The notes beneath the pieces were generated by a model. The model had not been told where the DNA came from and did no database searches. It saw only the letters and a list, made by a program, of their open reading frames with translations. A stretch of 64,000 nucleotides of DNA, taken from Pirellulales bacterium. Its GTDB lineage: Bacteria; Planctomycetota; Planctomycetia; Pirellulales; JANQPP01. The stretch covers positions 5,128-69,127 of the forward strand of contig JANQPP010000109.1 of NCBI GenBank assembly GCA_028289405.1, written 5' to 3'. The translations under genes and the position numbers were made by a program. Below, in pieces: positions 21,446-23,422 of this stretch (position 1 is the first letter of the stretch; each line of letters opens with the position of its first letter).

Positions 21446-23422
21446 ATGTCCACCACCCAAACCGACCGCATCTTTGAAGTCACGACCTCCGCTGGAAAGG
21501 ATGCCCTGCTGCTAGAATCCTTTGCCGGCACGGAACGGCTCTCCGGCCTGTTCCAATTCGATGTCTACATGGTCGCGGCCCAGGAATCGGTCGATTTGGA
21601 ATCGCTCATCGGAGAAAAGCTTACGCTCCGCCTACAACTCACCAATGATTCCACGCAGCATTTGAACGGATATGTGCGGCAAGTTTCTCAATTGACCAGC
21701 GCACATGGCAGCCCTCGCTGCCACGCCGAAGTCGTGCCCTGGCTCTGGTTTCTCACCCAAAACACGAACTGCCGGGTGTTTCAGCAAAAGACGACGCCCG
21801 AGATCATCAAGCAAATCTTTAGTGACCGCGGCTTCGGGGGAGATTTCGAGGACCGGCTACAGGGACAATTCGAGCCCCGCGATTATTGCCTGCAATATCG
21901 GGAGACGGATTTTGCCTTCGTAACCCGCCTCATGGCCGAGGAAGGCATTTTCTACTATTTCGAGCATTCCGACGGCAATCACAAGCTGATCTTGGCCAAC
22001 GATACGGGCGCGCATCAAGATTGTCCCGGCCAATCCACGGCAAAATTCCATGGGGGTGCCCCCGGTATGGGCGAGGACGTGGTCTTCACCTTCCGCGAGG
22101 AAAAAAAGTTCCATACGGGCAAAGTCACCTTGTGGGACTACCATTTCGCCACGCCGAACAATCGACTCGAATCCTCCAAGCCGAGCAAAATATCGGTGGG
22201 CAACAATTCAAAGTACGAGCATTACGACTATCCGGGGGAGTACGGTCGGCCTTGGTTCGACGAAGATAAAACTGCCAAGGTCCAGCCGCAGGGGGACCAC
22301 TTGGCGGAGATTCGCATGGAGTCCCTGGAGGCCCAGCAGCATACGTTCTATGGCACGAGCACTTGCGGCTCGTTCCGCTCCGGTTTCAAGTTTTCGCTGG
22401 AAGAGCACCCCGAGGGGAGTTTCAACCGGTCCTACGTGTTCACGACCGTGAAACACGAGGCGACCAGCAACCTGCCGGGCGGTGGAGAAGCCTCATATTC
22501 CAACAGCTTCGCCGCGATTCCGGATGATGTCCCCTTCCGCGCCCCCGCGATCTTCCGGAAGCCGGTCATGGATGGGTTGCAGACCGCCGTCGTCGTGGGT
22601 CGGGACGGCGAAGAAATCGACACCGATAAATATGGCCGCGTGAAGGTCCAATTCCATTGGGACCGCGAGGGTCAGAAGGACCAAAACAGTTCCTGCTGGG
22701 TCCGCGTCGCGCAGCTTTGGGCACATCAGAACTGGGGCGCCCATTTTTGGCCCCGTATCGGTTCCGAAGTGCTGGTCGGATTTTTGGAAGGGGATCCCGA
22801 CCAGCCGGTGATCATGGGCAGCCTCTACAACGCGTCAAACATGCCGCCTTACGCCATGCCGGACAATCAGACCCGCAGCGGGATTAAATCCCGCAGCAGC
22901 AAGGACGGCGGCACGGACAACTTTAACGAGATCCGCTTCGAGGACAAAAAAGACGAAGAAGAAATCTACATCCACGCGGAAAAGGATTTTCTGCGCATCG
23001 TGGAGAACAATGACACGCTGAAAGTCGGCTTTGAAAAGACCGACAAAGGCGACCAGTCCATCGAAATCCACAACAACCAGGATTTGAAAATTGGCAATGC
23101 CAAATCGTCCGACGGAAGCCAGAATGTCGAAATATGGAAGGACCGCAACGTCACGCTCAAGCAAGGGAATGACAGCCTTGAGATCAAAATGGGCAACCAG
23201 ACGACCAATGTGGCCCTGGGCAAGAGCGACACGCAGGCCATGCAGTCGATCGAGCTCAAGGTCGGAGCGAACAGTATCAAGATCGATCAGACCGGCATCA
23301 CGCTCAAAGGACTCATGATCAAAATTCAAGGGCAGGCCATGACGCAAGTGACCTCCCCCATGACGACCGTGAAGGGTGACGCCATGCTCATGCTCAAGGG
23401 CGGAATGATCATGATGAATTAG
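21446..23422 (+). CDS. vgrG: VgrG-type spike protein (gp27/gp5-like; type VI secretion or contractile-injection spike)
   Basis: 658 aa. N-terminal gp27-like region (FQFDVYM, YCLQYRETDFAFVTRLMAEEGIFYYFEH). OB-fold region with GSEVLVGFLEGDPDQPVIMGSLYN. C-terminal beta-helix repeats ending KGGMIMMN. Confidence 0.9.
   Translation: MSTTQTDRIFEVTTSAGKDALLLESFAGTERLSGLFQFDVYMVAAQESVDLESLIGEKLTLRLQLTNDSTQHLNGYVRQVSQLTSAHGSPRCHAEVVPWLWFLTQNTNCRVFQQKTTPEIIKQIFSDRGFGGDFEDRLQGQFEPRDYCLQYRETDFAFVTRLMAEEGIFYYFEHSDGNHKLILANDTGAHQDCPGQSTAKFHGGAPGMGEDVVFTFREEKKFHTGKVTLWDYHFATPNNRLESSKPSKISVGNNSKYEHYDYPGEYGRPWFDEDKTAKVQPQGDHLAEIRMESLEAQQHTFYGTSTCGSFRSGFKFSLEEHPEGSFNRSYVFTTVKHEATSNLPGGGEASYSNSFAAIPDDVPFRAPAIFRKPVMDGLQTAVVVGRDGEEIDTDKYGRVKVQFHWDREGQKDQNSSCWVRVAQLWAHQNWGAHFWPRIGSEVLVGFLEGDPDQPVIMGSLYNASNMPPYAMPDNQTRSGIKSRSSKDGGTDNFNEIRFEDKKDEEEIYIHAEKDFLRIVENNDTLKVGFEKTDKGDQSIEIHNNQDLKIGNAKSSDGSQNVEIWKDRNVTLKQGNDSLEIKMGNQTTNVALGKSDTQAMQSIELKVGANSIKIDQTGITLKGLMIKIQGQAMTQVTSPMTTVKGDAMLMLKGGMIMMN

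Follow-up and report, generated by a model that had tools for sequence, protein, structure and literature searches.

A vgrG spike module set apart from two T6SS core clusters in a planctomycete genome

The stretch of DNA analysed here (the window, 64 kb, C19:5128-69127) contains a unit of three genes, namely a deaminase-like gene, vgrG and a gene for an FHA-DUF6931 fusion, that lies beside a ParD/ParE pair and between a GalE-like gene and serA (Table 1). All of these ORFs were located as described in a first-pass annotation of the window. The best named relatives of SerA are from Pirellulales/Planctomycetota MAGs (about 70% identity), and judged by these relatives the genome is that of a planctomycete (class Planctomycetia), in agreement with the annotation. 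Between the stop codon of the FHA-DUF6931 gene and serA a consensus scan placed a terminator-like hairpin with a T run, which is a possible 3′ end of the three-gene transcription unit. This is weak evidence, since site counts in the promoter and terminator scan of the region were not above the shuffled expectation.

Table 1. Features at the vgrG locus (positions within the window) and the two T6SS-i core clusters on other contigs
Feature	Position	Strand	Description
GalE-like gene	15026-16084	-	
ParD/ParE pair	18658-19283		1.1 kb upstream of the three-gene unit
Deaminase-like ORF (P0001)	20421-21365	+	314 aa; AID/APOBEC-like zinc-deaminase-fold (predicted)
vgrG/tssI	21446-23422	+	658 aa; Pfam and NCBIfam matches
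FHA-DUF6931 fusion	23460-24458	+	332 aa; FHA residues 7-95, Pro/Ala-rich linker, DUF6931 residues 183-327
Terminator-like hairpin with T run	24585-24606	+	consensus scan only; possible 3′ end
SerA	24641-26314		
Cluster 1	C28		tssK-L-(short M)-A-B-C-hcp-tagJ-E-F-G-clpV
Cluster 2	C98		tssG-F-E-hcp-C-B-A-L-(short M)-K

Residues 29-342 of VgrG match the full Phage_GPD profile (PF05954, 1.3e-93) and represent the gp27-like hub, while the gp5 OB fold is covered by Phage_base_V (PF04717, 1.4e-16) and the beta-helical needle by Gp5_trimer_C (PF22178, 4.3e-21). The protein scored 612.7 bits against TIGR03361 (TssI/VgrG, cut-off 186.35) and 455.9 bits against TIGR01646 (cut-off 121.8), and its C-terminus has no effector extension. 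By these matches the ORF is a full-length canonical T6SS spike protein, VgrG/TssI, with secretion as the tip of the Hcp tube predicted. The three domains named in the annotation are thus all present, including the OB-fold peptide quoted there.

The annotation had also reported a low G+C content for vgrG, based on a spot count of 47%. Over its whole length the gene has a G+C content of 55.8% (GC3 73%), and its individual 60-nt lines vary from 43 to 67%, so that the spot count reflects sampling noise. The three-gene unit (4.04 kb) has 58.2% G+C compared to 58.7% for the genome, its tetranucleotide distance is at the 36th percentile among genome windows, and codon usage of vgrG is at the 32nd percentile among genome ORFs of the same size. 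In the phylogeny, the sister of this VgrG is the VgrG of a related locus (L010, 60% identity), and both are nested within a clade of mostly planctomycete VgrGs. Composition, codon usage and phylogeny together indicate that the spike module is native DNA and was not imported. A composition that does not stand out was what the annotation itself had named as a refutation of its island.

The gene downstream of vgrG codes for the FHA domain predicted earlier (PF00498, 5.6e-17), which is fused to DUF6931 (PF22011, 2e-50, 171 bits versus a gathering score of 27, full profile 1-145). Among 80 related vgrG loci, DUF6931 is encoded directly 3′ of vgrG in 54, with PAAR as the next gene in 43, and the fusion to FHA was seen in planctomycete loci only. 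This position after vgrG is found in at least Planctomycetota, Alpha- and Gammaproteobacteria and Gemmatimonadota. In our sample of the phylum, 18 of 19 DUF6931-positive genomes also encode TssC, compared to 97 of all 401 genomes (Fisher p=3e-11), and DUF6931 is usually within about 12 kb of tssC. The PDB sequence search returned no solved homologue of DUF6931, and only helical-repeat proteins were matched. Gene order and fusion suggest that DUF6931 serves the VgrG/PAAR spike as a dedicated partner, probably an assembly factor or adaptor.

An N-terminal FHA domain in a T6SS neighbourhood is also a feature of TagH/Fha1 (TIGR03354), as known from PpkA-PppA-Fha1 of P. aeruginosa and from the Fha of A. 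tumefaciens, which binds phospho-TssL. The protein encoded in the window reaches 40.1 bits against TIGR03354, below the cut-off of 120.25; instead of the TagH C-terminal domain it has DUF6931, and its gene is next to vgrG and not to genes for the membrane complex. Rhodobacterales loci have the order vgrG-DUF6931-PAAR-tagH, with a true TagH (281-306 bits) encoded two genes after DUF6931. We propose that the FHA-DUF6931 protein may provide a TagH-like link from the spike to phospho-threonine signalling.

The ORF upstream of vgrG had been called deaminase-like, and the motifs H122-A-E124 and P200-C201-x-x-C204, separated by an insert of 50-60 residues, bear this out. E124, P200, C201 and C204 are invariant in the 8 members of the family, two of which have C in place of H122. 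The residues form part of an H-A-E motif of helix 2 and an (S/T)-x-S-P-C-x-x-C motif of helix 3. When the family profile was compared to PDB sequences, 33 of 35 matches were deaminases, the best of them APOBEC3G (E=2.8e-4). No curated Pfam family was reached (best SNAD4, 16.6 bits, cut-off 27). An AF2 model from an alignment of 3 sequences had a pLDDT of 36 and was unusable; the 8-sequence alignment used instead gave a pTM of 0.69 and a pLDDT of 64, and places the two motifs where helices 2 and 3 begin. All top 50 Foldseek matches of this model in the PDB were AID/APOBEC proteins with probabilities up to 0.99, at E values of about 1e-3 and TM-scores of 0.2-0.4. The ORF is therefore best described as AID/APOBEC-like within the zinc deaminases, on weak fold scores and with catalysis predicted.

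The family is very small. Its profile retrieved only 6 matches from 1.84 billion representative proteins, and no relative was found in two profile scans of metagenome contigs, so that all members come from protein collections. Searches for paralogues in the genome were negative. In all 8 loci with a readable downstream gene, the deaminase-like gene is directly 5′ of vgrG, and we regard its product as a probable cargo effector carried by VgrG. T6SS deaminase toxins are known as DddA/BaDTF1, SsdA/BaDTF2 and BaDTF3, and P0001 shares with them the HxE...PCxxC motifs, the link to spike genes and, as predicted, the zinc deaminase fold. However, the known toxins form the C-terminal part of large PAAR/Rhs polymorphic toxins encoded next to an immunity gene, whereas P0001 is a small stand-alone protein without one, and is closer to AID/APOBEC than to the DddA or DYW-like clades. 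The AID/APOBEC and SNAD/NAD clades (Pfam APOBEC_N, APOBEC2, SNAD4, NAD1) provide its best profile and fold matches, all below gathering thresholds; P0001 differs from them in being bacterial and linked to a T6SS and in the insert between the motifs.

Apart from vgrG, no T6SS core gene was detected in the window, neither when the whole genome was searched with Pfam/NCBIfam models for TssC, Hcp, VgrG, PAAR, TssM, TssJ, TagH and sheath proteins nor by tblastn with the complete set of 13 cluster 1 proteins. The annotation had stated the same and had predicted a main T6SS elsewhere in the genome. Indeed, two T6SS-i core clusters are present on other contigs, both with TssA, B, C, E, F, G, K, L and Hcp and together with one ClpV; tblastn with the cluster 1 proteins likewise found the core genes in exactly two copies each. 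Most components scored above the NCBIfam equivalog cut-off (e.g., ClpV 1292 bits, TssF 665 bits, TssK 289 bits), while Hcp was assigned by Pfam and TssL was below the subfamily cut-off. Both TssM copies are short (557 aa and 565 aa), contain IcmF-related_N only and do not qualify as full-length TssM; the periplasmic IcmF-related domain PF06761 had no match genome-wide. The same holds for the outer-membrane lipoprotein TssJ (PF12790), of which a divergent form may exist. In view of both absences, the two machines are presumed to fire like those of Proteobacteria. No canonical TagH scored above the cut-off in the genome, and a Ser/Thr kinase gene is located 4.4 kb from tssK of cluster 1. The annotation had left room for another contractile system (eCIS/Afp). 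This alternative, and likewise a phage-tail-like particle, is excluded on the basis of the sheath gene, as no phage-type sheath (Phage_sheath_1, PF04984) was matched genome-wide.

Neither cluster 1 nor cluster 2 contains a vgrG or PAAR gene. In total, the genome has two genes each for TssC, Hcp and VgrG, three for DUF6931 and one for PAAR. These counts come from an assembly of 219 contigs with a completeness of about 95%, and further vgrG, PAAR or tagH genes could be in the missing 5%. The only other vgrG (Phage_GPD) gene is on contig C87, where it is followed by two tandem DUF6931 genes and no deaminase-like gene accompanies it; the single PAAR gene is on C87 as well. In both modules DUF6931 is encoded downstream of vgrG. 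No PAAR remnant was found 3′ of the FHA-DUF6931 gene. The spike encoded in the window would therefore share the C87 PAAR or work without one. As the genome keeps its spike genes outside two T6SS-i clusters that are otherwise complete, spike supply may be common to both machines.

Related loci show where such genes are found in other genomes. The order clpV, deaminase-like gene, vgrG is present in L030, L031/32, L113, L114 and L115, on contigs that end inside vgrG. In L017 the core genes run on into the spike genes (tssC...tssG-hcp-x-vgrG-DUF6931-PAAR); the 229-aa ORF preceding vgrG in this locus is unrelated to the deaminase family (hhalign probability 0.2%). A counterpart of the whole module is found in L010, where it is conserved at 46-60% identity and has the order deaminase-like gene, vgrG, FHA/DUF6931, PAAR, flanked by genes other than those in the window. 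As these genes directly adjoin the core cluster in relatives, we consider it probable that positions 20421-24458 represent the end of a canonical T6SS-i cluster, a spike module that has been relocated and is native to the planctomycete, and not the auxiliary effector island suggested in the annotation.

How the deaminase-like protein fits into this module leaves some room for doubt. No immunity gene was found beside its gene, whereas antibacterial T6SS toxins with a cytoplasmic target usually come with one, and the protein may therefore not be a toxin. It could be an intracellular accessory protein or regulator of the T6SS, possibly on a catalytically re-purposed deaminase fold, and would then need no immunity gene. 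Its fixed slot between clpV and vgrG in core clusters fits this idea, as do the gaps in L031, which are too short for an immunity gene (a 4-nt overlap with clpV and 68 nt to vgrG), and the fact that classical cargo effectors are usually encoded downstream of vgrG. However, the zinc-binding and catalytic residues are kept across the family, apart from the H122 exchange mentioned above, and deaminase toxins that lack immunity genes are known and have been read as aimed at distant targets (PMC3239186). The family is also too rare for a general component, with no member in the 80 related vgrG loci and the few matches in the protein collection. We therefore regard an accessory role as rather unlikely, and keep to the reading as a probable cargo effector of the relocated spike module.

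Orphan vgrG islands are common in Proteobacteria (cf. bioRxiv 10.1101/740209). The module resembles the auxiliary vgrG loci of proteobacterial T6SS-i (e.g., the aux clusters of V. cholerae and the vgrG islands of A. tumefaciens and P. aeruginosa) in that a canonical VgrG is grouped with accessory genes and a putative payload at a distance from the structural genes, and depends on core genes elsewhere in the genome. It could be viewed as a horizontally acquired auxiliary island that is inserted between housekeeping genes, stabilised by parDE and delivers extra payload for a T6SS with its own spike. Its distance from both core clusters and the nearby ParD/ParE pair would be in line with such an origin, and the different flanks of the L010 module imply that the module does move. 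Several observations speak against it. In contrast to the proteobacterial loci, an adaptor of the DUF4123, DUF1795 or DUF2169 type is absent, vgrG is not followed by an effector-immunity pair, and the putative effector is encoded upstream. The composition, tetranucleotide and codon usage values are typical of the genome, VgrG groups with planctomycete VgrGs, and in relatives the genes are within the main cluster. Both core clusters lack a vgrG and a PAAR of their own, which means that the spike encoded in the window is not an extra one. An acquired auxiliary island thus appears improbable.

A related proposal concerns DUF6931, which could be the immunity protein of the deaminase-like toxin and would turn the unit into a cassette of toxin, spike and immunity. 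A 2026 preprint uses the label 'DUF6931/SsdA-like immunity', SsdAI is all-alpha-helical (PMC7901873), DUF6931 matched helical-repeat proteins alone among PDB sequences, and its gene appears to share an operon with the deaminase-like gene, with no other immunity candidate. However, the deaminase-like gene is present in none of the 54 loci in which DUF6931 follows vgrG, and the tandem pair on C87 has no deaminase to neutralise. The slot between vgrG and PAAR is fixed across phyla, profiles A3 and A6, which include the domain, did not retrieve 7JTU (E up to 1 for A3 and up to 10 for A6), and a fusion to FHA is atypical of immunity proteins. We consider this function quite improbable, and prefer DUF6931 as a spike partner.

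It is hardly credible that vgrG is a decaying, functionless relic: it is separated from the core genes and adjoins no PAAR, but all three ORFs are intact and of full length with high domain scores and typical codon usage, the module is conserved in L010, and the two core clusters, in the absence of which the annotation would have taken vgrG as a relic, need a spike.

From the relocated spike module, the following model can be drawn. In one or both machines, a VgrG trimer would cap the Hcp tube on its TssEFGK baseplate, with DUF6931 acting as an assembly factor or adaptor for VgrG/PAAR. The FHA domain could replace the missing TagH, so that the loaded spike would dock on a phospho-threonine mark set by a Ser/Thr kinase. 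The APOBEC-like deaminase would ride VgrG into non-kin cells and may deaminate nucleic-acid bases there. In a bolder version of this model, which we offer tentatively and hold to be doubtful as a whole, DUF6931 would be a widely conserved T6SS component that has so far gone unrecognised; it would act as a chaperone or cap for the VgrG-PAAR spike and tie it to control by threonine phosphorylation. The FHA-DUF6931 protein would then be a Rosetta-stone fusion that reveals TagH-type FHA signalling acting on the spike itself and not on the membrane complex alone. In this lineage, the same spike would carry an AID/APOBEC-like deaminase without immunity protein, which may represent a new class of stand-alone effectors and a possible bacterial relative of the eukaryotic mutator deaminases.

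That an orphan vgrG implies a T6SS elsewhere in the genome is routine, and the locus is of an ordinary kind with two under-described parts. The annotation considered such systems little studied in this phylum; this may hold for experimental work, but with TssC in 97 of the 401 sampled genomes (24%) T6SS are common there. The deaminase family, which is very rare, stand-alone and tied to vgrG, may be of interest for work on the origin of AID/APOBEC proteins and on base editing. For the poorly described DUF6931, the fusion to FHA leads to a concrete hypothesis on how phospho-signalling may reach the T6SS spike.

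The VgrG encoded in the window matched Phage_GPD over residues 29-342 (1.3e-93), Phage_base_V (1.4e-16) and Gp5_trimer_C (4.3e-21) in a Pfam search, and scored 612.7 bits on the TssI/VgrG model TIGR03361 (cut-off 186). Its C-terminus is formed by beta-helix repeats, without an extra effector domain. The protein is thus full length, as the first-pass annotation had stated, and domain searches also recovered the neighbours named there, the deaminase-like, FHA, parDE, galE-like and serA genes. The best named relatives of SerA are from Pirellulales and Planctomycetota MAGs with about 70% identity; this bears out the label "planctomycete-like" and points to a rather deep lineage. 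Among the local genes parD has the lowest G+C content (51.8%), and neither ParD/ParE nor the DUF4190 gene is kept beside the homologous module in L010, a locus outside this genome. Upstream of the deaminase-like gene is a short ORF that runs into the start of that gene in an ATGACTGA arrangement and contains an inverted repeat (GTGCGAC-CGGT-GTCGCAC); it could act as a translational coupling or attenuation device.

Features of the window, of the T6SS loci of the same genome (contigs C28, C87 and C98; fetched loci L005, L006, L008 and L009) and of two loci from other planctomycetes (L017, L074)
Feature	Position	Strand	Description
GalE-like epimerase	15026-16084	-	
ParD/ParE toxin-antitoxin pair	18658-19283		directly upstream of spike module
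DUF4190 membrane protein	19374-20108	-	directly upstream of spike module
Short ORF	20366-20428		
Deaminase-like ORF (P0001)	20421-21365		314 aa; HAE and PCGEC motifs
VgrG	21446-23422	+	658 aa, complete; Pfam and NCBIfam matches
FHA-DUF6931 ORF	23460-24458		332 aa; DUF6931 = PF22011, 2e-50
SerA	24641-26314		
Cluster 1	C28, about 47-65 kb		ClpV, TssG, TssF, TssE, Tox-MPTase3 protein, TagJ/ImpE, Hcp, TssC, TssB, TssA, short TssM-like, TssL, TssK
Tox-MPTase3 (metallopeptidase toxin domain) protein	L005:14145-14648	-	167 aa; cluster 1, between tssE and tagJ
Short TssM-like protein, cluster 1	L006:1281-2954	-	557 aa; IcmF-related_N domain only
Imm5-like weak match	L006:5301-6101	+	just past tssK of cluster 1
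Ser/Thr protein kinase	L006:9465-11780 = C28:69464-71779	-	771 aa; 4.4 kb from tssK of cluster 1
Cluster 2	C98, about 21-33 kb		TssG, TssF, TssE, Hcp, TssC, TssB, TssA homologue, TssL, short TssM-like, TssK
Short TssM-like protein, cluster 2	L008:1675-3372	+	565 aa; IcmF-related_N domain
Second spike module	C87:79643-85202 = L009:7644-13203	-	vgrG2, two ORFs, DUF6931, DUF6931, PAAR
Adjacent tssC paralogues	L017:1-2335		metagenome contig
TssB/TssC ORF	L074:2461-4413	+	650 aa; Planctomycetaceae MAG; matches T6SS_VipA (TssB) and VipB (TssC)

The draft assembly (6.4 Mb, 219 contigs, 94.6% complete), in which the window corresponds to C19:5128-69127, was searched for contractile injection machinery. 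TssC and Hcp were each found in two copies, on C28 and C98, VgrG in two copies (the window gene and one on C87) and PAAR in one copy on C87. The search for a sheath of another kind returned no phage or eCIS sheath gene in the genome. In tblastn with all cluster 1 proteins against the genome each core gene had exactly two copies, none of them inside the window, which confirms both that no other T6SS core gene lies within the 64 kb and that the main T6SS, expected elsewhere, is present as two core clusters. ClpV of cluster 1 matched TIGR03345 with 1292 bits, and ClpV is absent from cluster 2. By gene set the system is a T6SS-i with two departures, since neither the periplasmic IcmF-related domain (PF06761) nor TssJ (PF12790) had a match anywhere in the genome. 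Judged from the gene content, the membrane complex of this planctomycete may be reduced to TssL and the short TssM. The Tox-MPTase3 protein and the Imm5-like match could be an effector of the main cluster and its immunity protein. As to sheath genes in other planctomycetes, the 650-aa ORF of L074 looks like a fused sheath subunit, and two adjacent tssC paralogues occur in several genomes.

Both core clusters lack vgrG and PAAR, so that all spikes of the genome come from two vgrG modules located apart from them. VgrG2 of the second detached module has 569 aa and no Gp5_trimer_C match, and two uncharacterised ORFs (251 and 210 aa) between vgrG2 and the tandem DUF6931 genes may encode cargo. The three-gene unit of the window had been considered an auxiliary effector island of low G+C content. 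At 55.8% G+C, vgrG ranks at the 10th percentile of the 2-kb windows of the genome; its GC3 of 73% is above that of the neighbouring genes. Single 60-nt lines of the gene vary between 43 and 67%, a spread that accounts for the earlier spot count of 47%. The whole 4.04-kb unit has 58.2% G+C versus 58.7% for the genome, its strand-symmetrised tetranucleotide distance to the mean of the genome ranks at the 36th percentile among 2,909 equally sized windows, and in codon usage vgrG ranks at the 32nd percentile when compared with 253 ORFs of about its length. This composition is typical of the genome, and the reading as a foreign island, which the first-pass annotation had itself tied to a deviating composition, fails.

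Phylogeny and synteny point in the same direction. A maximum likelihood tree built from 85 VgrGs joins the window protein and the VgrG of L010 as sisters (60% identity, support 100); next comes a Planctomycetota MAG with a vgrG-FHA/DUF6931-PAAR locus, and all three belong to a group, planctomycete for the most part, in which VgrG2 is found as well. L010 has the same triad followed by PAAR, with different flanks, and the nearest named planctomycete loci carry hcp immediately before vgrG. On metagenome contig L017 the order is tssC-tssC-tssE-tssF-tssG-hcp-x-vgrG-DUF6931-PAAR, and each of the five more distant P0001 homologues (L030, L031/L032, L113, L114, L115) follows the 3′ end of clpV and precedes the 5′ end of vgrG. 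Native composition, phylogeny within the phylum and contiguity with core genes in relatives together speak against an acquired extra island and indicate an internal rearrangement, by which clpV and the terminal spike genes would have come apart. A relocated native spike module, the detached end of a cluster, is the better description of the unit. The original observation was thus real except for its composition claim, and the main T6SS was correctly expected elsewhere. Both orphan vgrG genes and split T6SS loci occur widely, so that the unit is ordinary as a class.

The deaminase-like gene is rare. A set of 5.8 billion clustered proteins held just two close relatives of P0001, and when 1.84 billion representatives were scanned in full with HMMER, the family profile gave six matches. 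All eight family sequences share the motifs [H/C]-A-E-R-K and S-P-C-x-x-C without change, and only the subgroup of P0001 has a long insert between the two. Pfam matches at the PCxxC helix, to SNAD4, APOBEC2, APOBEC_N and dCMP_cyt_deam_1, were all sub-threshold; 33 of the 35 PDB-sequence matches of the family profile were deaminases, the best being APOBEC3G (E=2.8e-4). The AF2 model (8-sequence alignment; pLDDT 64, pTM 0.69) has a confident core, and its top 50 Foldseek matches in the PDB were all AID/APOBEC (probability ≤0.99, E about 1e-3, TM-scores 0.2-0.4). A zinc-deaminase fold of the AID/APOBEC-like type is therefore likely but not proven. The gene adjoins vgrG in 8/8 informative loci and was detected by a local HMM scan in none of 80 related vgrG loci, which fits a rare, VgrG-specific putative cargo effector. 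No immunity gene accompanies it, and L031 leaves no space for any. For deaminase toxins that lack an immunity gene, Iyer et al. (PMC3239186) proposed hosts or distantly related cells as the targets. We lean towards a putative toxin of this kind, with an accessory role without secretion as the main alternative. The contig numbering of the assembly holding L030 (GCA_036704645.1, contig JAXAXG0101430338.1) exceeds 1.4 million, which suggests a bacterial contig within a large, possibly eukaryotic-host or metagenome, assembly; this origin would matter if the deaminase effector targets a host.

For the third gene, local HMMs for DUF6931, FHA, PAAR and the deaminase-like family, built from the alignments and sequences of this analysis, were run on the 80 loci around VgrG relatives in named genomes. 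DUF6931 lies directly 3′ of vgrG in 54 of them, and PAAR follows in 43. The loci of Rhodobacterales and Pseudovibrio read vgrG-DUF6931-PAAR-FHA; the FHA protein is a bona fide TagH for 4/4 Rhodobacterales proteins tested (281-306 bits on TIGR03354, cut-off 120), and that of Pseudovibrio stays under the cut-off (104 bits). In planctomycete loci, including the window, the FHA domain is fused to the DUF6931 N-terminus. TssC was present in 97 of 401 sampled genomes of the phylum (24%) and DUF6931 above cut-off in 19, of which 18 also have TssC (Fisher p=3e-11), usually on the same contig and within about 12 kb. A 2026 preprint labels the domain "DUF6931/SsdA-like immunity". Profile searches of PDB sequences, which returned no solved homologue but only designed helical repeats (E 0.002 or weaker), gave no support for this label, and the distribution of DUF6931 speaks against it, with 54 loci that lack the deaminase-like gene, tandem copies on C87, and a fixed slot between vgrG and PAAR. 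From gene order and fusion we infer instead a dedicated partner of the VgrG/PAAR spike. The planctomycete fusion would have given DUF6931 the phospho-threonine reading that TagH supplies elsewhere. Canonical TagH was not found in the own genome (best match 46 bits, FHA-domain level only), and the 771-aa Ser/Thr kinase is a candidate PpkA-like partner of the FHA domain, one of many such kinases in planctomycetes. The interest of the unit lies in the under-described DUF6931 partner with its FHA fusion, in the rare APOBEC-like gene and in the apparently reduced membrane complex.
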